Assembly (NCBI GenBank): GCA_905178155.1
Contig: CAJINV010000018.1
Span: 68,479 to 132,478 of the forward strand
Source: Amoebophrya sp. A120
Taxonomy: Eukaryota > Protista > Dinoflagellata
Direction of reading: 5' to 3'
Length of the DNA: 64,000 bases
A program made the translations under genes and the position numbers. Below the pieces are notes generated by a model. It saw nothing but the letters and a program-made list of their open reading frames with translations, was not told the DNA's origin and ran no database searches. Positions 6,368 to 62,500 of this stretch are shown here, piece by piece. Within the stretch, counting starts at the first letter, position 1. Every line of letters starts with the position of its first letter.

Positions 6368-9270
6368 TTAGGGGTTGAAAGAATTAAGTTTTTGGTCAAG
6401 GTTTTGATTTGCGATTTTTCATTTTTTTTCTCCTCGCTCTGAATGGAAAAGGAAAGCGCAGACCATCCAGCCGAAAAAGCTCGCTGCGCCGATATCAACA
6501 TCTCGGCCGGTATCCAGACCAGCAGAAGCCGGGCAAAATGGAGGCCGCGCGCTTGCTGCTTCCAACCTCTCCCCCGGGTGAATACGATGAAGCCGCGGCG
6601 GCATTTTTCTCGGCTTCTGCTGACCTGGACTGCTGGCCAAGATATTAGCCTCGGCACCTCCCCAGAAGAACCCCAGACGCATTCCATCCGCCGCGAGGTA
6701 TTTGGGGCGCCGGGCTGCTGGCCCGGCTTCTCCGCCCCCAGATCTCATCCTGCGGTGGCGCGTATCGGGGTCCGGGGGAAGAGGCTGAGCAGCTGCGGGC
6801 TTGCCCGGCTGGAGGTTTGGCCGGGTCCCGGTTGCCGCCAAGGCGGCAAGTTCTCGGGTGGGCCTTTTCATGACAAAAGCGCACCAAAATGGAAGCAGGT
6901 TCTGATTTTTTCCGGGAGCTTTCCCCGGACTAACGCTTACGCCTTTGCCCCTGCCCTGGCCCCCCCCTTTCGGCCGAACTTGGTGGCCAAAACTGGGCCG
7001 ACGCGGGCGCCCATATCTTGGCCTGGCGGCCTGCCTTTTCCTGCGAGTTCCCTGGAGCAAATGGCAGGGCGCCCGGCTTCTCTGGCCCCGCATCCCGTTC
7101 CGCAATCTTGCGGGACGCCGTCCGGAGGCAAAGGTAGAGCACCTTCCTGGCCAACCACAGAGATGCTTGTCCCTGTAGTGGCTGCCGCCAAAGCGGCAAG
7201 AGGTTGGCCAGGGTTTTGCTCAGAAGAGGCTCACGGACATGGACGCAAAGACTTACTTTTCCCGGGAGCTTCCCCCGACCTGGAAAAGTACGCTTTTGCT
7301 TTCGCTTTGTGCTTCATCTTGGGGCCGAAAGTGCGGAGCCGAGCTGCGCCGATATGCTTGCCCATATCGTGTCGGGGCGGCCTGCTTCGTCGTGCAAGCC
7401 ACCTGGAGCAACTGGCAGGGCGCCCGGCTTCTCTGCCCCCGGATCTCGTTCCACAATCTTGCGGGACGACGGGAGGAGGCAGAGGTAGAGCACCTTAACG
7501 GCCAACGACGGATATGCCTGTCCCTGTGATGGCTGCCGCCAAAGCGGCAGGGTTTTGGTCAGGGTTTTGCTCCGAAAAGGCTCACCGCAATCGAAACAAA
7601 AACTTACTTTTTTCGGGAGCTTCCCCCGAGCTAATAAAATAAGTTTTTGCTTTCGCTTTGCCCTCCTTTTTGTGGCTGAAAGTGTGGAGCTGTTCTGGGC
7701 CGGTATGTTCGCCCACATCGTGCCCAGACAACCTACCTGGCCCTGCAAGTTACTTGGAGCATATGGCAGGGCGCCCGCCTTTTCTGCCTCCGGATCTCGC
7801 TCCGCAATCTTGCGCGGCGACGTGCGGAGGCAGAGGTAGATCACCTTCCTGGCCAGCCACAGAGATGCTTGGCTCTGAGGTGTCCGCCGTCGACCTCATC
7901 TTCAAGCCAAAACCTTATTTTATTAGGTCGCGTTTCGGACAAAAAAAAACTAAGGTTTAGGTTTGGAGATGAGGTCGACAACCCAACCGCAAAGATCGCC
8001 CTCTCTTTTTGCGGTCCACTTCCTGCTGGGCCACTCGCAGTGGCTGGAGGCTGGCCATGGCCGGCCCGTAGGAACTTGACCTCAAAAAGAGAGGCCGACT
8101 TTTGTCGGCTGGGTATAACGAGCTCATTTCAAATCAAAAACTTAGTTTTTTTTTTTCCGAAACACGAGCTAAAAAAATAAGTTTTTGCTTTCGACACGAG
8201 CTCCGAAAGCAGCCCCGGAAAGCAGACCTCTTGTTGTGGCCGGGATTTTGCCCAGTCAATCTCCGGCGGCGGATGTTGGCCATGCCTAGACCCGCACACC
8301 CGGGTGGCCGATTTGACGACAAAGACATACCGTACTAGCTCGGGGGAAGCCCCGGGAAAACCGGGCTTCCGACCTCATCTCCAAGCCAAAACCTTAATTA
8401 TTCTTTCTCCGCAACGCCACCTAATGTAATAAAATAAGGCTTTGGTTTGCAGATGAGGTCGGCGGCGGACGCCTCAGAAACAGGCGTCCCTTTGGTTGGC
8501 CAGGAGGGTGGTCTACCTCTGCCTCCGAACATTGTCCCGCAAGATTGCGGAGCGAGATCCTGAGGCAGAGCAACCGGGCACCCTGTCACTTGCCCCAAGT
8601 AACTTGCAGGGCCAGGTAGGTTGTCTGGGCACGATGTGGGCGAACATACCGGCCCAGAACAGCTCCACACTTTCAGCCACAAAAAGGAGGGCAAAGCGAA
8701 AGCAAAAACTTATTTTATTAGCTCGGGGGAAGCTCCCGAAAAAAGTAAGTTTTTGCTTCGATTGCGGTGAGCCTTTTCGGAGCAAAACCCTGACCAAAAC
8801 CCTGCCGCTTTGGCGGCAGCCATCACAGGGGCAAGCATCTCTTTGGCTGGCCAGGATGGTGATCTACCTCTGCCTCCGAACGTTGTCCCGCAAGATTGCG
8901 GAACGAGATCCGGAGGCAGAAAAGCCGGGCAGCCTGCTCCGCGTACCAAGTAACGCGCGAGGCGAGGCGGCTTGCCTGGCGTAGATGCCAGCCTAGATCT
9001 CGAGGGAAATGCTGACCCCCAAATCAGCCAGCGCGCGCTCGTCAGAATTGTGGCGACACCTCGCACAAAATCTGGATCGGCATCAAGGTAGAAGGGCCTT
9101 CAGCTCTGAAGGCCCGGCGGCTTTGGTTTTGCCAGCCAGACGAAATACGAACCAAGGCACCACCTGGACAACTGCCGGGCGGTGCGAAGAGGGACAAAGG
9201 CGGGGGCTGCGAAATCTATGAAACCACGAACCAAAACCCTGATGTAAACCTTAACTTTTTCAACCCTTAA
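6368..9270. mobile_element. ~2.9-kb non-autonomous foldback/TIR element
   Basis: Left end ttaggggttgaaagaattaagttttt matches the reverse complement of the right end (ttaagggttgaaaaaagttaaggttt). Flanks are cctctt/cgtctt (5/6). It contains ~350-bp tandem units and a long inverted duplication (ORFs 7555-7839+ and 8513-8797- are near-identical). Confidence 0.8.
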
Positions 9271-22267: not shown

Positions 22268-23539
22268 CTTCCGTGATTGTTTGGGGAAAAAAGACGAAGG
22301 TGAGTACTTAGGTGATTTGCAAACAGAGTGTGCTTGTAAATGGCGCCAATCGTAAGACGTGACGTTGAAGAGTAGCTTATATTGCAATGCGAAATCTATC
22401 AAAATAGAAGTTTAGGCAAAAGCACAGTAGAAGCGTTTAAGTAAGTTGAAGAGTTTATAAACTCGATTGCGAAAGCAAGTTACTCAGTAGTAAATCGGGC
22501 AAGCCGAATCCCTGTAAGAGGTTTTTGTAGTAAGTAAGTAAGTAAGTCTCAAAACCTAGCACCAGGCTGATGGAGGGGATGCGACTGAAAGTGCTCGCGG
22601 CGCTTATTGCGCAGGCCGCAATTATGAAAAGCCTACATACAAACACGACCGACGCCCCGACCGATAAGCAACGAAGTACACCCGTCGCGCGAGTGATGCT
22701 TTTGCTTTTTGCGATTGCCTATCTTCGTAAGTACTGGCTAAAGCCCAGCGAGCAGTCTGGGTCTTGCTTGGCCGATTCCATATCCGGAAAGGCCTAGGGC
22801 TGCAGATCTCTGAAATAGCCATTATAACGGATCTTGTTGCAATCGCTGCGGATTGATCTCTTCTCTCTGGGTCGCTTCATGCTGAGTCTCGATCTTTCGA
22901 CGGGTACTGCCTGATCAGGATTGGTCACACAAGATGGAGCACTTCGCTATCTACAACCTACTTACAGAAGGCTTGCGCCCTGCGTCTCGCTGTAGAGTGG
23001 ATCTCTGCGCAGTCTAGTACTCGACTCTTGCTACACGAGCGATTCCGCAACTCATGCCTGCTCGCATTTCAGAATCTTGCTGCAGTAGCTGTTCTACCAA
23101 ACATATTTAGCGGCGCAGACATAGGCGTCGTGTCCACAAATTCAAGAGCATATACTAAGTTGCGCCTAAGTACGCAAAGCCAGGAGGCAGGAGCACTTGA
23201 GGGGCGGAGTACTTATTCCATAATTTACACATCGCATCCAAGTACTGAGCCGCGCAAGCCCTGGCGCAGCCCAGCGTGGACATGCTGCGGGCCGGGGACT
23301 CGGGCGGGGTAGGGTTCGATGGCGTGCCAAGCCCCGCCGAGGACACACAAGGCGCCCCGCTTGACATCCAAAAGCCGCTCCTTCCACAGCGGAAGCCAAT
23401 GCTTTGTGCTGCAGGGTTGCCGCTCCGGAAAGCGGGGACTTTTCTTTTGTAAAAAGTGGCGGAAAAGCGGCCGGGCAGCCCAAAATTTCAGGAGGCTAGC
23501 CTTGCATAAGGAGCTTCGGGCGCAGCCCGAAAACTTTCG

Positions 23540-24428
23540 CCCCGGCCCAGATTTTAGGAGCCTATCCGAGGTTTTGGCCTTCAGAACCTCGCATAGCCCT
23601 CCACGATCCAGAAAAGAACTCTTCGTGGCGCTGTTGCGCCACCCAAGTTTCGAGGTGGCTATGCGAGGTTGTGGCTTTCAGAACCTCGGATAGCCATCCG
23701 CGAACCAAAAAAAAATTCTTCGCGGCGCTGCCGCGCCGCCCAGATTTCGGAGGGGCTATACGAGGTTTTGAAAATAAAAAGCCCGGGTAGGAAGTATACT
23801 CCTCGCGGCACTGCAACGCCGACCAGATTTCGGAGGGGCTATACGAGGTTTTGAAAATAAAGAGCCCGGGTAGGAAGTATACTCATCGCGGCGCTGCTAC
23901 GCCGGCCAGATTTCGGAGGGGCTATACGAGGTTTTGAAAATAAAAAGCCCGGGTAGGAAATATAATCTTCGCGGCGCTGCCGCGCCGACCAAATTTTGAG
24001 AGGGCTATGCGAGGTTCTGGCTTTCAAAACCTCACATAGCCCTCCGCGATCCAAAAAAAAATTCTTCGCGGCGCTGCCGCGCCGCCGAAATTTTGAGAGG
24101 GCTATACGAGGTTCTGGCTTTCGAAACCTCGCATAGCTCTCCGCGATGCAAAAAAAAAAATTTTCGCGGCGCTGCCGCGCCGCCCAGATTTCGGAGGGGC
24201 TATACGAGGTTCTGAAAAAAAAAAGCCCGGGTAGGAAATATGAGTTTTGCGTTTTTTCCTACCCGGGGTTTTTATTTTCAAAACCCCGGGTAGGAAATAT
24301 TTATCCGCTGCTCTGCTCGTCTGTAAGGGTGGCAACAGCTGATAAATATTTCCTACCCGGGGTTTTGAAAATAAAAACCCCGGGTAGGAAAAAACGCAAA
24401 ATGCATTTTTCCTACCCGGGCTTTTTTT
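23540..24428. repeat. tandem array of 83/98-bp units ending in a ~210-bp palindrome (probable non-autonomous element)
   Basis: Units beginning cgcggcgctgccgcg start at ~23623, 23721, 23804, 23887, 23970, 24067 and 24165. A hairpin at ~24219-24428 has ~85-bp arms built from cccgggtaggaa/ttcctacccggg. Confidence 0.85.
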
Positions 24429-24610
24429 ATTTTGCTGTCTGTTCCCATAGACCCCACGAGCCCCCGCGCATTGCAAGCTGTCTACACTGCTTTCCCACGT
24501 ATTTTCTACGTCTAAGTACGCGCGCACTGCTTTGGTGCGTGTCAGATGGCTAAGTACGTACGTAGTACTTACTCGAAGTTCAATCATGCTCCAGCGCTTA
24601 CATCCCGCAC

Positions 24611-47515: not shown

Positions 47516-50500
47516 TCACATACATGGTTGCAATGTTGGCGTCTGTGTGCCTGATGCGCTGGAGCCTCCCGTTAGAGCTCCTTCCGCAACCGGATTCTTA
47601 TTCTCGGCGGCCAACTCTCCTAAAGTCGCATCGGCCTTGGTTGCTCCCAACAACCTCGTCCCGCAGCAGTTGCAGGTCGCGCACTGGCTTGTGTACCTTT
47701 GTTTGAAGTCCGGGTTATTTCGGATGGAGTTCGCCACGTATTGGTTGAAATCGCCGGCGTTGTCGAGCTTGATTCCGCCCATGTTCTGCGCAAACTTCGG
47801 GTCCTTTTCCATCATTTGCTTCACGCACTGCAACGAGCTGTCGGCGTTGCATTGGCCCGGGGTGGCGCAGTGCAGGCCCGAGTCGTCCCGCTCCCAAATG
47901 GGATTGCCCTGTGCGTCCTCCCCGCGCTGGTTCACCTTGATCGCGTGGCCGTCCGGGTAGCCCGTGTTGGCGTCGCCGTCCATGACAAGCTCCGAGCCAT
48001 ACTCGGGGACGCCCGGCAGGTACCTTCTCCTCGCCGCGGGGATCACGTTCCCGGCTTCATCGCGCATCAAGTTTCCGCTCGCGTCGTACTGCGGCTTGGG
48101 GTCTGACCCGTACGGGTATCAACTGCAAATATGTCTGGGTCTGGAAGGGTGCAAACTTGTCACGCAGGTTTTCCATGACCCATGAGGTTTGGAATGCGGG
48201 ACCTATCATGACAGACTCTATGAGGTCTCTGTGATGCCTATCCTGCATGAGAAATCCCCTCCCAACTTGGTCGAAAGTGGACGGCTTTTGGCACTCATGC
48301 AACACAGATTTTTGCATGATTCCCATTTAGCATGACAAGTTGCAACTTTCCAGACCCAGACATATTTGCATTTGATAACGGGGGGTCGTACGCGAAATCT
48401 CGGTACGGAATCCCTTTGGTCTTGCACACCGCGGTCGCCACCGCGCCGTCGCGCTGCGGACCGCCGGTGGCCTTGCCCTGCGCGTACTTCTGGGCGTAGT
48501 TGTTGGCGTCATTATCCGGGAGAAACGCCCAGCCGCCCTTGTCGCTCTGCTGGACCACCTCGCCGGACATGTGCGCCTCCGCAGCGCCCAGTTTGGCGGT
48601 GCTGCCGTTTGGCATTTTGACATCCGTGTTCTTATCCAGGTCTTCCGGGTGCGTGTTGCGGACCTTCTCTTCGTTCTTCTGCTCTTCCTTTTCCGCCTCC
48701 TGCACGGCGTCCTTGTACGTCGACACAGTGTCGGAATCCGTCCGCTTCAGCGGCGGGGCGTCGTCGTCGGAAGTCGAACCGCTATTCGCAGCTCCCGCAG
48801 CGGCGGCTGCCGCTGCCGGCGCTTGTCCACTAGATGCAGCTCCTGTTGCCGGCTGTCCTACGGGTTGTTGAGCAGGAGCCGCTCCGCCTCCCGCCTGCTG
48901 CTGCAGGTCGTGGGCGCCACCTGCGGCTTGGCCGATCTGGTCCTGGCCGGAAACGTTGCTCGTGTCCATACCATCCAGCTGCATGTTGATCTGCGGCTCA
49001 CTGGTGTTCGCCTGGCCGGCCTGGTCTCCACCAGAGCTACTACTGCTACTGTCACCACCATTCGTATTAAGGCCCAACTGCTTTCCGACGCTGTCCAACT
49101 TCCTCGCCATGGCGACCGACGCCTGGCCGGCGGCCGACATATGGGCGATTTGCGGGCCGCTCATCCCGGTTGTCTGCAAAGCGCCACCTCCCCCGCCGCC
49201 CGCAGCGGCCTGGTCGATTTCGGCTTTTTGCATCGCCTCCATGTTTTTGTAGACCTGCTGCAAGTGGTTCTTCAGATTCTCCGTCGCGGACCGGTACCAG
49301 GCGTCCAGCGCTTTCTCGATGGTGGCTCGGGCCAAATGCTTGGTAATCGACTGCACCGCCGCGGACACGAACTCTTTCTCCATCATTTCTTTCAAAAAGT
49401 TCATAATTTCGTTGTCCAGCAGCTCCAACAACTCGTCCATTTTCGTGTCAATGACCTGCTTCCCGAGCCGCCCGTTCGGCTGTTCCAAAACGTTCAGAGG
49501 CTTCCCGTGGTACAGTTCCGACGCCCCGTGCTGGGTGATGATCTTTTCCAGCGCGAGCAAGCCGAGCAGTTTCTCCGAAAACGCCTTGCCGACCTTGCCC
49601 ATCTTGTCCCACTCGTGCATCATCGACAAAATTCGCAGCGGCGCCAGCTGCGCCCAACGCTCCATGTTTTGGCTGTTGAACACCGACTGCCGGTTGGTGC
49701 CGAGGTTGGATCCAAACATGTTCACGTCCGCCTTCTGCTGGGCGTTGGCGCCCGCCTGCATGGTCTGCTGGACCTGCATCTCCCGGATTTTCTTCGCGAA
49801 GTTGATGAAATCCGACATGGAGTCGTCCTCGTCGTAGCATTTGCGGATTTCCCCGATCTTCTCGCGGATCACCTCCTCGGATCGCATGTTGTCGGAGTAG
49901 TACTGGTATTGTGAGGAAAAATCCCCCCTCCCCATATCGAAAACGATATTTGTGTTCCTGTATTTGTGTACACTGTATTGCTAGAAGGCCAAGAGACGCA
50001 GTAGTTTCCCCCTGGTTTGCAGGCAATTTGTCATGCTGTTTCCCGTTTCCAGTTGCTTCCTGGCATGCTGAAGACGCAAGGCTTTCCTAGTACGCCAGCC
50101 AGCACTACAATCCGCATCTCTTCCCTTCTAGCATGACAACGTGATTTGTGATCACAAATCATGCTACACAAATCTCCCTTTGAGTATGGGGAGGGGGGAT
50201 TCTTTATTTTGATAACTGGAAGATCCGCATCATGGAATTCCGCAAACGCAGTTTGTTCTTTTGGTAGTCCCGGGACTTCAGGATCTTCTCGTGCAGCTTG
50301 GTCAGAATCTTTTTCATGATCGTCGACTCCATCAAGGTCTTGGTCAATTTCTCCTGGACGTTCTGCTTCACGCCCTGCGCCACGCCCATCAACAACTTTG
50401 ACGTGAACCGCTGCACCTGCGCCCCCACCTTCGCCGCAACCATTCCCGCCGGGCCACCGGCCGCACCCGCGGCTGCGCCCCCACCCGCTGCTGCACCACC

Positions 50501-53500
50501 GGCGCCCGCCGCGCCGGCGCCGCCGCCACCAGCGATGCCTGCGAAGCCGTTCATCCCCGGCAGTCCCTCCAGGGGCTTGTCGGCGTTAAACGCGCCCCAC
50601 CCGCCGCCATTGTCGCTGTCCTGCACCCTACCAGTCAAGCCCAGCTGGAACACGGTTTGGCAAACAGACGGCAGCTTCGTGTTCTTGAACCATCGCTTGA
50701 TGTGGGGACAATCCCCCTTCATGAAGGCGTCAATCGCGAACGCGATGTCATTCACTCCCTCTTCCCGCAAAATCTCCGATATCGGCGCCAAATACGGGAT
50801 GAAACTGATCGCCAACTGCACCACACCGAAGATCGCGATCAGCATTGCGTGCAAGATGTACCGGGGGGATTTGAGGTGGAATATGCGCTTCAGCCCCATC
50901 TCCTTTTCCAAGAATTTGATCAAAGTCTTCTTGTGCTCCTTCCCCTCGTCATCCTGGTCCAAACCCGCCTCTTTCGCCTTTTCCTCCATCGCGTTGCGGA
51001 CGGATTTTGTGTCGTCAATCTTCAAATACGGCTCCAGCTTCAGCTGCCCGATGTCCCCTTTCACCTTCTGCAGCACGTGCCCGTATCCCGTGCAAAAACG
51101 TCCCCACCCCAGAGTCAAGATCATCGGGATTCTGCAACACAAACCTTGAAGTTTTGGGGGTCACGCATGACAAGTTGCATGCTGTACTGTAGTGCAGCTT
51201 AGCAAGCGAAGCCGCATAACAAATCCATCTACTCATCCTGTTTGCAGCATTACAAGTTCCGAAACACGATATGAAATGCCTCTCATGGGGATGCGCATTA
51301 CAAATGCTCCTGTGCTTGCAAATCTGCATGACAACTCTGGGGTGGGGATGTTTTTCCATAGGATAGCTCGATCATTTTGTCCAAGTCCATGTCAGTTTGA
51401 TCGCTGGCCCACACGTCTTTTACCACCGGGAGCAGCGTATCCTGAGTAAATACGTCCCCACTTCATAGTCAAGATAGGAAACCTCTCCCATTTTAGGGAG
51501 TTGCGCATGACAAGTTTGCCTCTGCAGTTTAGCGCTGGTTAGCAAGGCAAGCCGCATGAGAAAGCCATTTTCTCATCCTGTTTACAGCATTACAAATTCC
51601 AAAACACGATTGGAAATGCCTCTCAACATGGAGCTTCGGATCGCAAATGTTCCTGTCATTGCGCATTTGCATGACAACTATGGGGTGGGGACGTTTTTAC
51701 ATAGGATACAGCGTTTTCAAGATGTACTTTACCCACTTCGGGAACTTCCGCTTCAAGCTTGGATCCATATCCCACAGAAAAAAGCAGGCAGGTCATATTT
51801 GTAATGCAAAAATAAATACACAGGAAAATCTGTCATGGGCGAGGCCATAGCATGCTGTTTAGGGCATGCAATACGAGTTTTTTTGTCTATTTATTTTTGC
51901 ATTACAAATATGACCTGCCGGTCTTTTCTAGGGGATAATCCACTGTCGTGATCGCGTCCTCCACTTTGTCCCGCATCGCTTCAATGCGGTCCTCCGCGTC
52001 CTCCCAGAACGAACTGTAGTGGTAGTCCATGGTGAATTTCGCTCGCAGTGGGAGCAACGCCCCCACCTCATGCAGCCGGCCGTACATGTCCTGGGCCTGG
52101 GCGTGTCTCAGACTGTTCAGCGAGCGTTCTATCACCGTTTCTGCGTTCCTCGGGCCGGAAAACCGGTCGTTCTCCACAATGTTCATGTCGGGGGAGTCCA
52201 GCGCTTGCAGTCTCTCCAGCAATATCATGAGGAAAAACGTCTCCACCCCATAGCCAAGATGAGAAATCTGCTAGACAAATCTACAAGTTTTGGCTGTTCC
52301 GCATGACAAGCTTGGCCTCGTAGTGTAATCCTGTTTAGCTAGTTCAGCAGCATCACAGATCTAATATATAATGCTGACTGGAGCATCAGAAATTACGAAA
52401 CACGACTAGAAAGTGCATCTCTTGGGGCTTCGCATGAGAAACATTTTCAGCATGCAGATTTGCATTACAACTATGGGGTGGGGACGTTTTTAGATAGGAT
52501 AAGTAACGCGTCATCCTTTTCCGACATGGAGGTGGTCCTTTGCTGCGGCTGTTTCTTATCATTATTTTAAAGGTGCAAAAAACTCAGCTCCCGAAACAGC
52601 TCCCAAATTTCTTAATTGAACGCTTCCGGGACCGTCCGAGGGCAGCTTTGCACTTCCGAAAGCGCAAAACCTTTCGACCACACTACGCGCGCCTCTTGAA
52701 GCAGTCTCATTGGTCTTGTCATGGCTCACGATGATCAGACCCCGCGGCGCCTACTGTTTTAAAATATCCAGAAAGGCGGCCGAGATGCTTACTCGTGCGA
52801 CCAGGCGAAGTATCTGCGTAGTTCTTGGCCATTTGCGCGCGGCGGCGTCCCATCTGTGCTCTTTTGGGTCATTTGTGCAGAATAACGCGCCATCTGTGCA
52901 CGATGACGCTTTATCTGGCCGAGAGTGGCCATCGGAGACCGTTTTGCGCGACCAAGTCCGAATGCTATAAAAAACACTATGCCGAATGCTATAAAAAACA
53001 TTATGACGAATGCCATAAAAAAGTGCACCCGAACATGATAAAAAACAACACGCCGAAAAGACAGCGTTAGGTGCGGGTAAGCAACTCAGGAGCAGCCCTA
53101 CCTTTTGACCCCGCAAAACAAAGCTTTTTGTGATGTGCCGGAAGCCGCATCTTTTGCCACTTTTTCTGTGAAAAAGTTGCGAAGGTTCCGCATTCCAGAC
53201 GTCCATTCTTCCAGTTTTCGGCTTGCACGTCACAGATTCCATTCCCCATGGAATTTGTGACGCTTGGGCAATTTGGAGTACATGACGAGGAGAGTTCGCA
53301 AATGCGAAGGCTCCGCACGACGAAACTCCATCCCTCAGCTTTTGGCTTGCGCATTACAAATTTCATTCTTCATGGAATTTGTAATGCGTGAGGAACATGG
53401 AATCGCGAGGCGTGGAGTTTTTATCTGCGCTACCCAGGCGCCTACTTCGTTTCAAAGGAAGCGGACGCCTTGCTTGCTGAGCCCCAGAGGCTGCAAGCTT

Positions 53501-56500
53501 TTGAAGCAAAAAAAAAAAGCCCCTTCAAGAAGACCGAAGAAATACCCTTTTTGGAAACAGCAAAAAGCACATGAAAAAAAACCACACTTTTTACAACAAA
53601 AAAGTGACTTTTTTGACTCGTTTTGACTGGGTCACCAACATGGGTCAGAAAACGGGTCCGAAAACCCTATAAAGAAATCACAGCGTTAGGTGGGGATAAG
53701 CGAGAGCGACTCTGTCTTTTCGGTATAGGTGTTTTTGAGAGTCTTCTTTGTCGCAGTCGGACTGCGACAAAGAACACTATAGAAAACACCATGCCGAACA
53801 CTATAAAAAACACCATGCCGAACACTATAAAAAACACTATGCCGAATGCTATCAAAAAGTGCACCCGAACACGATAAAAAACACTACGCCGAAAAGACAG
53901 CGTTAGGTGCGGATAAGCACTTCAAGAAGCGCCACTTTTTGCACCTCGAAATTGCCAAAAAGAACAACTTGAGACGAAGGCGCAAGTTGTCCGCAAAGGT
54001 AGTGCTGCCGCGTCTCCGCGGAGACGACGGCGCACGACGTTGGCGCCCACTTTTTTGTTCCTCTCAAATACGAGAGCTGGAACTTCCTCGACTTTCAAGT
54101 CGGTAAAGTTCCAGCTCCCGTTCCGATGGCTTTCATTTCTTGAGCGCTCCAGTTCGTGTTGTCCTGGAGCGTCCTCTCTTTGAAAATTCAAGCCCGAGTC
54201 CTGCAATTGAGCGCTGCAGTTACTCTGAGCTGGAAAGTTCATGAAGGGAAGGCTACAGCAGCGGGAACTGGAACTTTGCCGACTTGAGAGTCGGGAAAGT
54301 TCCATTTCCCGCTCCCGAAAGGAAGAAAAGCCCGCTCCTTTTTTTTGATCGCAGAAACGCGGCTTTTTGAACGCAAAAAAGTGGTGATCTTTGGAAGTGC
54401 TTATCCGCACCTAACGCTGTCTTTTCTTTATGTTGTTTTTTATAGTGTTCTTTATAGTGTTCTTTGACTCGTTTTGTGTGGTGTTCTTTGTGTAGTTTTT
54501 TGACGTGTTCGGGAACCCATTCACCAACTCATGCTGTGTGCAGTTCGTCATGTCATGACGAACTGCGCGCAGAATCCTGGCAACGGCACCAAGAACATAA
54601 GCAGAACATCGCAAACGACGCGAAATAGACGCTTTGCAGCGCGAAAAGTCGCTTTCGCACGATTTGCGACCTTCCGCGCGCGAAATCGGGCTCGAAGTGA
54701 GCTAGCGGCGCCACTATATGTTGGCGCCGGCTCTGAAAGTCCCTGCCACTAAAATAAAAACCCACAGGCCGAATTTTCAAAGCTGTTCTCAGAGCTGAAT
54801 TTTTTACACCCTTAATTATTGCTCCCCGTGCCGCCGATGACCAAATGGCGGTGCAAATCCTGGGCGTCGATCCCGTGGCTCAGCGTCGCGTAGAAATGCG
54901 TGCAGGTCTGCCGCCGCAACTCGTGCAGCGCGGTGTGGATAAAAGCTTTCTTGTGCTGCGGCAAATGCTCGTAGCCGGCGACGTTGGAGTTCTCGTAGCG
55001 GAGTTTGAACAGCTTCAGCATGAACCGCTGCGAGGAGTAACTTTTGGCGGCGAGTGGCAGGCGCGAACCGGGTGGCAGTTCTAGCGGTTGAATCAAATCT
55101 TGGCAGAACTTGTGCTCGGCGGAATCGGCATCACTGCTCGTGTCCATCTCATCTATGCTCTTCGTCAAAGCGGACGCAAGGGTGAACTCCTGCAACAGCG
55201 CAGCGGGAATTTGCGGTTCGTTTTGCTGCTGCTGTTGGCCACTACCTGCAGCTTGTTTCTTGTCAAAGGCAAACGCCATCGCCGGGTCGACGTCGACAAT
55301 TGGGACGATTTCCTGACGCAGCAATCGCACCGTCTTCTGTTGTACCTCGGGTGTTCCATTACTGTCGTCGTACCAGCTCACATCGTATAAAGTCGGCAAA
55401 TCGAGTTTCTCCTTTTCAAACATCTCTTGGAGAAAGCTCTCGGCGCGGGGGGAGTTCAAACTAGTCTTCAAGTTCTTCAACAACCCAGCCGGCATTGCGT
55501 CTTTCAACGCGCCGCCTTTTGTGAGAAATCAAATGCAAAAGTGTCTGGGTCTGGAAGAATGCAGACTTGTCATGCATATTTTCCATGCCTTATGAGGTCT
55601 GAAATGCAGGACCTAGCATGACAGATTCTGCGAAGTCTCTATCATGCCGATCTTGCATGAGAAACTCCCCTCCATGTTAGAAGTCAAAAAAGGAGAACTT
55701 TTGGCGATCACGCAAGACAGATTTATTTTGTGTGACCCACGGGACGCATCACAAGTTCCATCCTCCCAGACCCAGACATGTTTACATTTGATATGAACGA
55801 AGATTTCACGATTTTCTCCACCACTCCGACTTTCCCGTCCTGCGCCCGCAAAACCAAAGAATTCGGTTTGATCAATGCGTCTCGGCTGATCAGCAGCTTC
55901 TGGTCGTCCAGTTTCACTTCCGACGATTTTTGCTTGCGCGCCTTCACGATGACGGGGACCCGACGGTCAGCACCACTGTTCCTCGAGTCCATCTCCTGCA
56001 GAGCCACGCCATCGACGTAGGCCTCCTCCAGCCGGTACTTGGCCCGCAGCTGGTCCAGGGTTTTCGCAAACTCACCGTGGTAGTCCTTCCCCGTGGTTGT
56101 TTCGGTCGATACGGAGACGTCGTACTTCCAGAATTCGTTTAGCTCCCGGACCGTCACGCCCGCGCCGTCCCGCGTCGCGATCAAATCGGAGTCCAGGACG
56201 ATCGTGCAGGGGTTCTCCTCGGAGCACGTTTTAGATAACAGCTGCAGTTCCTGCTGATCTTTGCTGTTGCTGCTTCCCTTCATCTTCAGGAAAGAGCCTG
56301 CCGGCGCGTTTAGGAACCGTTCGTTCAACTTCTCGAGATTTTTATTGTGCGTCAGCTGCATGAACTTGGCCTCCGTCTGGGTCATCCGCATGCGGTCGAA
56401 GTGGTCCCCGTAGGCCTGCAGCATGGACAAGACCCATTTCTCCTGCAAATCCTTGTTTTCGTCCTTCTTCCCGGCGTACAGCATGGACTGCGCGCGGAAC

Positions 56501-59500
56501 TGCTGGTTGCTGGTTTCGTCCAGGGACTTGTACCAGATTTCGTCCGAAAACACGATCGTGGACAAAAACGCCGCCTTCCCGACCCGCCGCTTGAAGTTGG
56601 ACAACAGAGTTTCTTTTTTGTCCTCTTTGTTCCTGTCCAAAATCATACCCATGTCCGTCGCTGCCGTCACCGCGGAGTCGTCGATCATAGAGAGGTGGGT
56701 GGATTGCAGCGCTCGCTCGATCCGAGTTGACAAATCTCTCTTCTTCTTGTTCCGATAGGCGCCGTTGTGCTTGTCGAATTTACCGGTTATTTTGTCCATC
56801 GCGCGTTGGAAAAAATCCTTTTCCAAAAACCGCGACAAGATGAACACCTGCCCAATCTGCACGGAAGTGAACGCGGTCAAAAGAGCCTTGAAAAATTGCT
56901 GCTGCAGCAAGCGGATGCGGTAGCTCTTCCAGGCGGATTGCACGGCGAAGAACCCGCGGCCGTTTAGCTCCGCTTTGTCCAACATTTGCTGCACTTTCAA
57001 CTCCGTTGTTTGCTTGTTTGCCTCTTTCAACTCTTCGTCCTTTTCTTCCGGGTCGAACAAATCGTCCTCGAAATCCTGGGCAAAAACGTCCCCACACCGG
57101 AGCCAAGATGGGAAAGCTGCTAGACAAATCTACAAGTTTTGGCTGTTTTGCACGACAAATTTGGACTCGTAGTGTAGTGCTTTTTGAGGTACTTAAGCAG
57201 CATCACAGATCTGGCACATCATGCTGATTCTAGCATCACAAATTCCAAAACACGACCATGGAGCTCCGCATGAGAAACTTTTTTGGCATGCGGATTTGCC
57301 TGACAACTCCGTGGTGGGGACGTTTTTACTCAGAATACTCGAAATCGGTCAACAGCCGCGGGACGTCGGCCGCCGTGCTTGCGCGGTACAAATTCGAGAC
57401 CCTCGACGGGAAAAATTCTCCGGCTTCCGGTCGGAATAACTCCTCCAATTCGATTCGCACGACAACTTCCGGATTTTCCTTTTTGTTGTAGAAAAGTCTT
57501 TCCAATTTCGCGAGGATCCTCGCCGGTTCCACGGTCTGGAGGAACTCCTTGATGACGCTCTGCTCGTCCTCCTTGTTCGGCCGGTACTGACAAGCGGCAG
57601 TGTCCTCTGCGTCGTCGAAGTTGTCGTCGTCGAGGGAGCTGTTCATTTTGTCACTCAAATCTTTGCAGCCGCAGAACTCCCCCGGTTGGTCGTCATTCGT
57701 GCCATCAGCAGTACTAGAACTGCTAGTGCCTCCCGTCTGCAGGGCGCCGGAAGTAAAACTTCCGTCGAAGCTCGTTTGGTCAAAGTTGTTGTTGGTCAAA
57801 CCACCAGCCGCTCCTCCACTCACGTTCGCTAGAGCGTTGGAGCCGAAAACGCCCTTCGCAGAAACCTTCTGCTCCACGAAAAAAGCGGTTTGCGCTTCGG
57901 CTTTCAGAACGCTGTTCGCAGCGGAGTCTTGGCCGAATTGCTTCAGCGCGTCCTGCACCCCGGGCGTGTTCCGCGCCATCTCTTCCAAATGCGCCCGGTC
58001 CTGCAGTTTGTTCTTGTTGCAGCTGCAGCTGTTTTCCAGGCGTGCGGCGAACCGTTCTAGTTGCTGGCTCACGCGCGAACGAATGTCCGAGGTGCGCAGC
58101 TTGTCAATGTCGTGCACCGTCATGGCCACCCGCTCCGTGAACGTGGCGCGCAGCTCCCGCAGGATCAGTAGTCGGGTTTCGAATGTTTCTGGGGTGTGCT
58201 CCCCACCATTCCAATTCGCGCTTTGGTGCTTGAGTCCGAGCTTAATGCTATCACGCGCATCTGCGGGCGAACCGAAGAGCTTCTTCCAGGTACCTGCTGG
58301 AACATCTTGGTTGCAGTCCTTGGTGAGAAAATTGGCAAGCTCTCCAAACTTCGAAATAAGCCTGTCGAAGGGGAACTGGATGCGATTCTGCGTCTTCACC
58401 CACTGCAGCCGGCTGCGGGCAGTCAGCGAGTTGGCATCTGCGTTGGTGGGCGGGGGAACAGAATTGCGGTCGCTGTTGGATTTCGAAGTTTTTTGCTCTT
58501 CCTTCTTCGCCGCCAGCTCGGTTGGCGTCAGGCCGAACTGACCAGCGGTGTTGTCCTTGTTTGCCTCGTTTTGGAGATTGGCATCCGCGTCGATCTCCAG
58601 CGAGGTGGTGATTAGTTTGCTGTGAATTATGTCGTGTTTGCCGGATAATATGATATCGATATGCAGCTCTTATTTCGCAAACGTTTCATCTCAAAAATCT
58701 TTGGTTTTGATGTCGCTCCTGCGGGCATAAACACACACTTTCTCATGCAAAGTGAAAGAAAAGAAAAAGATGAATGTAAGTACTTTTCGTTTTCTCCGCC
58801 CGCACCCTTGCAGACTTCCTTGCTAAAGACCGCCACCGCACTCATTTCCGTCGCTTTGGACAAGCGAAACGGGTTTGCGGCGAAACAAATATCGAGGAAG
58901 CATTCCTCCAGTCCGTACTCGCTATGCATTGCAAATTAGCCTGGGTGGTCTGGCAAATGCAAGATTTGTCACCTTTGTCTGGCATGACTCCTAAGAAGTA
59001 TTTCAAACAAATCACCCAGATAAAGCCCCATCTTTGTGCCGGAGTAGAAATGCGGTTCGCAGTGGTGAATTGGCAAGAACATCTAGCAACTCAAAAACTT
59101 CTTGTCATGCTTAGCCGGCAAATAATATGGCGTCGACGTGATTATCCCTCCGGATGAGTCACAAGTTTCCAGACCCAGATCAAAAATATTTGCAATTTGA
59201 TACTCGCTGCCCTTCTGCCACTTGATCTCCCGCACTAGGTACTGTCCCAGTCTGCGGTTCAGCTTCTGGATGTCCTGCAGGTCGACCATGACTTCTTTCT
59301 TCTGCTCTAGATACGCGAACACCCGGCGAACGATCTTCTCCCACTGCCCCACGGTGAACAGACTGTGCAGCTGCTCTTTGTTCACACCTATCGTCACGTC
59401 CTCGTTGCGGTTCTGACCTGCGTTGTGGGTAAGCAACTTCATCATCAGCCGTTGCTCGTGGTTCGGAATGACGATGTCGCTGGGCAGTTTCTGGTCCACG

Positions 59501-62500
59501 TTCGCACCAGTTCGGTAGGATTCCGACCTTGTAAGCCGGTTCTGGAGTTTTTTCTGAAAACCCTCCCGCGTCCCCGCGTGGCCCCGGTGCTCAATCAAGA
59601 AGGATTTGGTCACGTTGGCGAACATCCTCAAAATGCGCTCCGACAGCGCGGCGGCAAAGTGAGAGAGCGATGCGGACTGTTGTTGCTCGGCGCCGGATAT
59701 CAAATGCAAAAATGTCTGGGTCTGGAAGAATGCAGACTTGTCATGCATATTTTGTATGATGATTGATGCCTCTAATGCATGATCTAGCAACGCAGATTTT
59801 TAGCGGGCTTCCTAATGCTTATTCCGCATGAGAAATGCCCTCTCCGCGTAACACAAAATAGAGTCCTGTTGCTGGTCATTCAATACAGATTTTTTTGGAA
59901 TCCAAAGATAGCACTACAATCCAGATCCAGACATTTTTGCAATCCATACCGGACGAACCCCCGGCGCCGTTTCCGTCCAAGTCCTCGCGCTGCCGCCGTT
60001 CGTTCTCCGCCTTGCGCTCCGCGAGTGCCTTTGACAGATTGGAACAGGTCTCGGTCAGCAAGTTCGCGGCGGTTCTCTGCTGGCCCAAAATTTGCTGTTT
60101 CGCCACCACCTGGCGCAACTCGTTCCTCTTTTCGCCCAGTTCAATCGTTTTCGGCCCGATTTCTGCGTGGTTGGCGAACTGGCCGGAGATCTGGGGACGT
60201 CCGCCGTCGACGTCCATTGCGGCACCTTCCTCGTCGACGTCCATTGCGGTACTGCTGGCTCTTCTCGCTGTTGTCGCCCGCCGATTCCCTTGCCGCTTGA
60301 CCTCCGACATGCGGGCTTCCACAGTTTCTATCAAAGTGGCAATCTGCCATTTCCGGTTTTTGAAGTCGCGGACCTCCTCTTCGACCGTGTTTTTCTGCTC
60401 ATCAAAGCCGCTCTTTTCCCTATCTATCTTCTCCCGGACTTGCGGGATCAGCTGCGCAATAAGTTGCCGAAGACTGTCCAGTCTCTCCCGCGCGACCTGC
60501 CGGCCATTTTCGTATGCTGCATCGATCAGGTTGTAGTCCTGCAAAGCAGCCTGCACCTCTTGTGTGGTGAAACCGGTTTGGGCTCCGCGAATGTCTTCGG
60601 TCAAATAATTTGCGATGACTTCCGCAGCACTTTCCAATTTTAGCAATCCTGGCAGTACCTTCGTGAGCTTTTCCATCCTTTTCACTTGATCTTCCTCTTT
60701 TGCGAGGGCCTCGGCACTCAGTTGCGGCGTCACGACCCCGTCGAGAAAAGTTTTGTATGCCAGGACCTTGCTTGCAATAGTCCCGAACTCCGTCTTCCTC
60801 GAATTGACCTTCTGCTCCAGCACACTTTTCAGCTCCGCAGCTCTGCCTTCCCGAGTTTTCTGCTCATTCTGCGCGTTGGGCTTCTTGTAGAGGAGCATGT
60901 AGACGGTGCTGTCCCTCTGCGTGCTTTGGTCTTTCAAATACTGGTCAAAACCGCTGTTGTATCGCAAGAAAAAAGTGTTACAGTTACACATTGTCACGCA
61001 AGACTGGCAAAAGAGACAACCTTTCCCATGCAGGAAATGCTTCGGAGCCTCGTTTCCTTCCTGTTTTTCCTTATGATCTTCGTATTACAAGTCTTCTCTG
61101 CCACACAGAGAAAATTTGTGACGCAGAAACTCCAGCAAGTGTGTAACTGTAACACTTTTTTCTCGTGATATGTTGGGGACGGCCCTCACGCTCTTGTCGT
61201 CGTCGAAGTGTCGCCACTGCGGATCTCTCTGAGTGCCGACGTTCACCACGGCTGTGTAATGGCCGGAATTCGCGGTGTGGCCGTGGTGCAAAATCACCGC
61301 ATGGAGTTCGTACGCCTGCGACACAGGGTCCATGCCCCGTCCCTGAGTTTGCCTTGCCCACTCAGTGTATTTGTGTGTGTCCTCTTGGCTTTCCGGATTG
61401 CGCAAGCGCGCACGTTCAAACTCCGTGTGGACGCCACTTGGACCATTCCGTCTCGCTTCCCCGTCGATGTAGAAAAGCCTAGGAACATCTAGATAATGCT
61501 TCTTTTTCCTGATGCTTCCGTCCATCTCGTATGCAAAGCGTTTCACTTCGAGCCGCAAAATTTCCGGCAGTCTCCGGAGGTGGGCTTTGCGATGGAGGCC
61601 ATACATGATCTTCCGAATCGTTCGCGTTCGTCCGTGGCTATCTGTGATTGTCCGAACTTCCGCCGGTACCTGCTTCGTCCGCATTTCCATACCCTCCAAC
61701 CAGGCCGGCCGAGGGTCGTGGGGTTCCATTGCACTATCGGGGCAAAATTGAGAATCAAGCAGCAACTATATTGATTGGGTCAACACGACTTGTTCTTGCG
61801 CAGTCAATGGCCATGCAGTCGGGGGCAGGAGCGGGAGCCCCCGCTGGAAGAGCAGTTGAGAGCACATTTACGACGTATGTCTGAGCTCTGTATGCAAACT
61901 TTGTCGCCTGCTTGATTCCAATGTTTGCTTCAATTTGATAGTCGTGGGAGTATATGCTGCTATCTCCCTTATCAGGGTCGAAGTGGGCGTTTCGCAGAGC
62001 TCCGAGAATGTCAGTGTGTTTTTGCTCGTTGTACTCAAACATCAATTGGGAGTGAGGCCACCACGCATTGCCGGCGTCGTCTTTCTTTTCCTTGCTCTGG
62101 CCCGGAATCGGGTTCTCTTGCTGGTCAATCGCGAAGAATTCCTCCTTGATTTCGACTTTGAAGAGGTTTTGGAAATGCTCAGGTAGCACATAATCGACCA
62201 GTTTGTTCATCCCCTCCGTCGGGTCCTGTTGGTTCCAATCATGCCTGCCCCTAAGTTCGTGCCAATTCGCCTTCCGCATGACATAATATAGAAGCGCTTC
62301 TACTCCTTGCTGTCGGTTGTAAATTGACAAATTGTTGTTGCTCTGTCCTCGACCGCCCGACCCAGCGACGGCACGGAAAAAGGGGCACCATTGTCTGAGT
62401 TTCTCGTTATCTTCCGGGGTACGTTGCTGAAAATTACTACCGGAACTCGCGCTCAGTCCTCGCAGCTCCTGCTCTCGCTGCGCGCACTCCGCCTCGGCCA

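Follow-up and report, generated by a model that had tools for sequence, protein, structure and literature searches.

A non-coding element of 2249 bp interrupts a gene of the dinoflagellate Amoebophrya sp. A120, within a stretch of 64,000 nucleotides of contig CAJINV010000018.1 (assembly GCA_905178155.1, positions 68,479 to 132,478 of the forward strand; hereafter the window, in whose numbering all positions are given), and transcript-like assemblies lack exactly this element together with one copy of the 5-bp direct repeat (DR) that borders it. The best explanation overall, held with rather more confidence than doubt, is that the element is an introner-type transposon that is missing precisely with one DR copy and is likely excised by way of a stem predicted to form between its terminal inverted repeats (TIRs). 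This giant is likely an unusually long, low-copy member of the known class of transposon-made introns in parasitic dinoflagellates. Its borders and host gene comprise the following features:

52567-54815, no strand: TIR element, non-coding, 2249 bp; the minus-strand transcript lacks the element plus one DR copy (2254 nt)
52562-52566: left copy of the TTATT direct repeat, a likely target-site duplication
54816-54820: direct repeat TTATT, right copy, likely target-site duplication; upstream on the transcript
52567-52611, no strand: left TIR, imperfect, about 45 nt; 3' arm of the predicted pre-mRNA stem
54771-54815, no strand: right TIR, imperfect; 5' arm of the predicted stem; other genomic copies also stop at 54815
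52574-52581, plus strand: box at TIR positions 8-15, register-matched to small TAT-type elements; mirror copy at 54801-54808
48290-58669, minus strand: host gene segment, an open frame of 2080 codons once eight elements are removed
54816-55521, minus strand: upstream host exon; its unspliced frame ends at the first TAA of the element
52502-52561, minus strand: downstream host exon of 59-60 nt, with the giant on one side and a small introner on the other

Junctions in transcript-like assemblies

The evidence for removal comes from ten sequencing runs, none of which is on record as RNA; four of these (X1-X4) are presumed to be RNA, represent one sample of one study and consist of contigs assembled from cDNA, and two others (X5 and X6) are DNA-type. 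Contigs of the RNA-type runs X2 and X3 join position 52560 directly to 54815 with 59 letters on the short side, a skip of 2254 letters that equals the 2249-bp element plus one 5-bp DR copy, and a contig of X4 stops at 52566 and continues for eight loose letters that equal 54821-54828. The junction 52566/54816, which the initial annotation had named as the place to look for spanning RNA, is spanned in two runs and partly in a third. Mean depth over 52811-54616 is 0 in X1 and X2 (at 92%), and gaps of 59 and 121 letters (X1 record 2 and X2 record 5) correspond to the small exons expected from exact removal. The RNA-type exons display no substitution relative to the window across a contig of 3631 nt. 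The DNA-type run X6 lacks the 52560 to 54815 joint, its contigs running through the element and over its right edge. Run X8, comprised of raw RNA reads under the same species label, placed one of 3.3 million reads, and the sequence is absent from it.

A further line of evidence is provided by P0001, an NCBI record on a contig of 3991 nt and the sole match among 1707 candidates in a search of longer proteins. This record is identical at 450 of 459 positions, reads through the junction of the giant and through three neighbouring junctions, and is another allele or strain, probably a transcript. Its C-terminal end diverges after the 459 matching columns and stops, likely through a frameshift in the record. 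A contig of X2 carries an extra T in a T-run at 56613 that is absent from X1 and X5 and is probably an assembly error. Taken together, the junctions indicate that removal very probably takes place at the RNA level.

The host gene itself places the giant among smaller elements of the same behaviour. Its 2080-codon minus-strand frame requires the removal of eight elements, each with one DR copy; the seven others are small introners with TAT ends (TAT-type; 49902-57337), all of which are skipped in the RNA-type contigs with one 5-bp DR copy, and the proposal that the giant obeys the excision rule of its neighbours is in this respect borne out. Three neighbours have mismatched DRs, and in 3/3 the upstream copy is retained, as read directly from contigs for two and from the letter count and P0001 for the third. 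The in-frame fusion of GTGSN to NDKKQ described in the initial annotation arises when 2254 nt are removed, but not from removal of 52567-54815 alone, since taking out these 2249 nt shifts the host frame. A length of as much as 2.25 kb does not prevent removal in this gene. The unspliced upstream frame does end within the element, at the TAA of 54812-54814, and two separate genes might be envisaged, the upstream one stopping there; this arrangement, whose likelihood is negligible, is ruled out by single contigs in two runs that join both sides of the element and by the read-through of P0001. The host is one gene, not two. None of five exon frames scanned from this segment matched a Pfam family.

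Ends, interior and copies of the element

The TIR arms at 52567-52611 and 54771-54815 begin with TTAAAGGTG and TTAAGGGTG, and their identity amounts to 21/24, 28/35 and 34/45 over increasing spans, in accord with the TIR of about 35 bp first described. The TTATT repeat is perfect, as had also been claimed, at 52562-52566 and 54816-54820, and an additional shared A renders the join ambiguous over six letters. Pairs of TIRs matching at no fewer than 19/22 positions, with a perfect 5-bp DR and a spacing of 100-4000 nt, occur eight times in the real window and not once in any of ten third-order Markov simulations of it (0 in 10/10), which served as the control for chance. No GT, GC or GA donor with an AG acceptor was found at the minus-strand ends of the element in any of seven registers. 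The giant is much longer than its small neighbours (155-308 nt, median 256, 16 from the scan), although the ratio is about 8-9 rather than the tenfold first stated.

The ends of the giant had been regarded as a type of their own, TTAA as opposed to TAT. They do start with TTA and depart from the small ends at positions 2-7, but position 1 and the box at positions 8-15 match. Small elements were collected from scans in which hits from the 23400-24500 repeat cluster and from within two large elements were excluded; one element found by hand (51768-51937) completed the matrix of their ends, for a total of 17. Their 34 ends bear T1 in 32/34, A2 and T3 each in 34/34, G9 in 30/34 and A11-A13 in 33-34/34. 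T at position 1 is common to both groups, and positions 8-15 of the giant (TGYAAAAA) lie in exact register with the small ends and obtain the top score on the small-end matrix, a score reached by 1-2 in 10,000 background 8-mers. Each end of the giant has six A residues from position 11, and its inner hairpin bears an 11-nt motif present in several small elements. Because T1, the box in register and the hairpin motif are held in common, the giant is kin to the small-element system, and this resemblance in sequence speaks for a single system whose ends come in two variants.

A second large element with TTA-type ends is located at 6368-9270 (2903 bp). Its 50-nt TIR is 76% complementary, and it contains three to four 351-bp units and inner inverted arms of 511 nt at 90%. 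It shares with the giant a TTA-R-GGG start and bears a weaker version of the 8-15 box. Its flank repeat is imperfect (5/6 over 6 bp), its flanks look non-coding, and no Pfam match was found in five of its frames.

The interior of the giant is built from repeated and inverted modules:

52958-53116, plus strand: block A1, 24-bp tandem repeats and a motif of about 40 bp
53178-53401, no strand: two related hairpin units 124 nt apart, the arms of which bear the 11-nt motif of the small neighbours
53772-53951, plus strand: block A2, a 24-bp tandem array and a copy of A1 (85%)
54053-54329, no strand: palindromic core with 103-nt arms 73% complementary
54376-54510, minus strand: a copy of block A in inverted orientation, with tandem units of 12 bp, bearing one arm of a perfect 33-bp inner inverted repeat

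Most of this architecture had been recognized in the initial annotation, namely the 24-bp tandem repeats (arrays at 52958-53022 and 53772-53893), a duplicated block (52958-53116 and 53794-53951, 85%) and small hairpins near 53225-53390, which fall within 53178-53401. The inner inverted repeat is likewise present and perfect (53891-53923 and 54394-54426), at 33 bp instead of 32. The report of no recognizable open reading frame (ORF) also stands, as the longest stop-to-stop frame within the element is 200 aa and no match at the curated Pfam cut-off was obtained in the 14 scanned of 27 element frames of at least 60 aa; in these 14 frames no transposase was found. Rfam gave no match in the element at E 0.1. 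The giant likely belongs to the Amoebophrya introners as a non-autonomous DNA transposon of foldback-like build.

The element belongs to a low-copy family. Twelve of the 29 contigs placed from the DNA-type run X6 are less than 99% alike to the window, and the diverged contigs match both ends of the element at about 86-88%. Two X6 contigs and one X2 contig diverge from the window exactly behind 54815, and the right end is thereby fixed independently of the junctions; of the flanks of other copies, short loose ends are seen. A diverged copy carries the same substitutions in X2 and X6. Contig depth summed over the element amounts to 1-5 times that of a single copy in X6, contig depth being a weak measure of copy number. 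In both X5 and X6, the contigs that cover 52594-53460 reach about double the single-copy depth without any differing letter, and the rest of the element lies at single depth, which suggests that the left part alone has a near-identical twin, through mosaic copies or a collapsed duplication. Pattern scans of metagenome contigs returned 0 matches to the TIR and 0 to the inner motif, and one match to a viral contig, in AT-rich, coding-like DNA and ending directly after the pattern, was rejected as chance.

Proposed removal and competing explanations

A plausible course of events begins with insertion by a cut-and-paste or integrase-type transposase acting in trans, which would generate the 5-bp duplication; the small TAT elements are probably mobilized by the same transposase. 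After transcription, the TIRs would pair across 2.2 kb of pre-mRNA and place the two DR copies next to each other. The fold predicted for the whole pre-mRNA region pairs the TIRs over 25 contiguous pairs from the first base, at probabilities of 0.8-1.0, and most DNA mismatches between the arms become G-U pairs on the transcribed strand. The 5' cut would fall at the base of the stem, or within a few bases of it, and the 3' cut after the second DR copy, such that the upstream copy would stay and the original coding sequence would be restored. Removal is probably stem-guided. The cutter would most likely be a divergent U2-type spliceosome, for which the stem would take the place of U1/GT recognition and the U-run derived from the shared 8-15 box would serve as the 3' tract; given a stem-guided process, a spliceosome is moderately favored over another enzyme. 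The available text of Farhat 2021 (PMC7789003) reports that U1 snRNA was not detected in Amoebophrya and that U2/U4/U6 and nearly all spliceosome proteins are present.

Several observations weigh against stem-guided excision from the transcript. The G-U bias in the TIR of the giant, 7:1 (p=0.035, post hoc), has no counterpart in 16 small elements, where the ratio is 16:20, and thus provides no evidence of selection for RNA pairing. The RNA-type runs stem from a single sample and study, their RNA status is presumed and they are contigs rather than reads; the unspliced form of this copy is absent among the contigs of that sample, so these give no evidence of its presence in the sample's DNA, and the cut is located to no better than the six ambiguous letters. 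One X2 contig holds the end of a diverged copy joined to its flank, indicating either that not every copy is always removed or that a retained copy lies in unspliced or untranslated RNA. Finally, no transposase or autonomous partner was found in pattern scans of the metagenome and viral collections or in the 14 element frames scanned.

The principal alternative retains the same element and stem rule and replaces the spliceosome with a spliceosome-independent endonuclease and ligase, the route proposed for the nonconventional introns of euglenids, which are released as circles. It is a lesser possibility, yet one to be taken seriously, given that no donor, acceptor or fixed dinucleotide is found in any register in eight introns and that a strong terminal stem is predicted. 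Similarly built euglenid introns reach several thousand nucleotides and are excised as circles, as described in the accessible part of PMC11282704, and the reported failure to detect U1 points in the same direction (PMC7789003, from the text available). Conversely, the same source reports nearly all spliceosome proteins and U2/U4/U6 in Amoebophrya, and the box yields a U-run whose distance from the 3' end is constant and that a U2AF-like factor could read.

Far less probable is a polymorphic insertion, in which the strain or culture that provided the RNA lacks the element and the skip is an empty allele. The perfect DR, the lack of an unspliced junction in the RNA sample and the left region of about 870 nt, whose X5 and X6 contigs are of about double single-copy depth, show no variant letters and hint at a recent duplication, would suit this idea; the absence of any substitution between RNA-type exons and window over 3631 nt would not, nor would the shared substitutions of the diverged copy in X2 and X6, which show that the samples share the family. 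Moreover, the TIR arms differ at 11/45 sites, and no empty form appears in the DNA-type run, in contigs that drop rare variants. A stem combined with a direct repeat is also a setting for reverse-transcriptase jumps, and the giant has both, with all evidence coming from cDNA. The skip as a template switch over the hairpin between short direct repeats (a 'falsitron', as outlined in the part of PMC8240250 available) is nevertheless very improbable, as no form other than the skipped one is seen, the skip extends to all eight elements of the gene and is required for the long open frame, and DR copies that differ at the middle base keep the upstream base, which leaves at most 2 nt for a jump.

The chance that the boundaries have been misread is slighter still. 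In Kolobok and piggyBac elements TTAA is the duplicated target, and TTAA followed inward by purines is found at both ends of the giant, so that TTATT might be a chance repeat next to a Kolobok- or piggyBac-like duplication. Against this, the RNA-type contigs lose both TTAA copies and one TTATT, counting from the first T sets the TIR in register with the small elements, the second large element (6368-9270) begins with TTAG at one end, and TTA-R-R is the published start of the inverted repeat (IR) in strain A25, as stated in the available text of PMC7789003.

A bolder proposition may be entertained, though it is rather doubtful: that the TGYAAAAA box, which gives a U-run close to the 3' cut in the RNA, and the terminal stem constitute the entire non-GT-AG splicing signal of Amoebophrya and double as the site bound by a single hidden transposase, with the first triplet and an interior of kilobases left free. 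Were this true, one transposon superfamily would have built its own U1-independent splicing code, and full-size, even autonomous, members could sit in exons without loss.

Relation to known elements

The closest relatives of the giant are the introner elements of Amoebophrya A25 and A120, which, according to the available text of Farhat 2021 (PMC7789003), have non-GT-AG ends, terminal IRs and DRs of 3-5 nt, are repeated and lack a transposase. The giant shares with them its non-GT-AG ends, TIR, 5-nt DR, removal in RNA-type contigs and repetition, and no transposase was found in it; it differs in its length of 2249 nt compared to an average of 120-240 nt, in its longer TIR (about 45 nt) and in its complex, foldback-like interior. 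The same text gives the IR consensus of A120 as TAT, seven bases and AAA, and that of A25 as TTA, two purines and a final G. The small elements of the window fit TAT-n7-AAA, whereas the giant lacks the TAT start but has the A-run from position 11; its own starts, TTAAA and TTAAG, read as TTA and two purines, by the A25 consensus as worded there. The giant would accordingly combine an A25-type start with the A120 A-run, kept in register, in an A120-type genome.

Kilobase-scale introners in A120, for the most part with non-canonical ends, are already on record. Among all 58 A120 rows of supplement sd07 of Gozashti 2025 (PMC12130899, consulted in the parts available), fam86 is 1619 bp with simple repeats and four copies, fam103 is about 1.2 kb with 27 copies, and fam200 is unclassified, with four copies and alignment coordinates up to about 2.5 kb; fam38 bears an ORF and is Ginger-like with a 5-bp target-site duplication (TSD) and TA termini, and fam65 has an 8-9-bp TSD and GG/CC termini. 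The giant is likewise a kilobase-scale TIR introner with non-canonical ends, unlike fam38 has no integrase-like ORF, and could belong to fam200, as far as these entries allow. Three short motifs of the giant are absent from all supplement files searched (12 of 14), which seem to be tables rather than consensus sequences. The available text of that study describes both autonomous and non-autonomous introners and states that introns can arise from autonomous elements in other species.

Two other comparisons are informative. The nonconventional introns of euglenids, in the available account (PMC11282704), have a TIR stem that joins their ends, TSD-like repeats, non-canonical junctions and lengths of up to several thousand nucleotides, all of which resemble the giant; the lineage is unrelated, the end consensus is another, and excision as circles is a finding from euglenids. 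From the perspective of DNA transposons in general, the giant shares with miniature inverted-repeat transposable elements (MITEs) and foldback elements a TIR with TSD, the lack of coding capacity and modular tandem and inverted subterminal repeats, and differs from both by its removal from RNA. MITEs are short (less than about 800 bp) and of high copy number, and the giant, at 2249 bp and 1-5 times single-copy depth in X6, is too long and too low in copy. In classical foldback elements the outer arms are long mirror images, whereas the mirror symmetry of the giant is internal.

These comparisons define what the giant adds. It displays precise removal at a length more than double the upper limit considered in Farhat 2021 (PMC7789003), which, in the text available, covered introns of 40-1000 bp and described the removal and mobilization of tens of thousands of non-GT-AG introns of Amoebophrya as unsolved; a literature search that included few subscription papers found no paper that solves the removal mechanism. 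The known range is little extended, because kilobase-scale families have already been catalogued for A120 (PMC12130899, as above). Rather, the giant sorts variable end positions (2-7) from constant ones (1 and 8-15) using two end types in one genome, and it offers a useful long substrate for minigene tests and a TIR to serve as a probe for the missing transposase.

The initial annotation is partly supported by these results: its local claim holds, and its general claim is in part already published and in part contradicted by the shared box. Removal of almost any TIR element regardless of terminal bases is at odds with TGYAAAAA, which the giant shares in register with its neighbours, and because this end motif is common to the short neighbours, removal of any transposon is not implied by the giant. 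Nor are exons uniformly safe landing sites, as had been proposed, because introners are fewer in core genes according to the available text of Farhat 2021 (PMC7789003). Without a transposase, the giant says nothing direct about autonomous elements.

The surrounding window is 51% GC with co-oriented genes, features that, like the lengths of the small elements and the match of their 34 ends to TAT-n7-AAA, point to Amoebophrya as the host. Repeat units of 83 and 97 bp, in direct and inverted orientation, are clustered at 23400-24430. Across the Pfam scans of 14 element, five host-exon, five second-large-element and 25 other frames, the sole match at cut-off is a ubiquitin carboxyl-terminal hydrolase fragment at 61088-61765 (Pfam UCH, E 8e-17).

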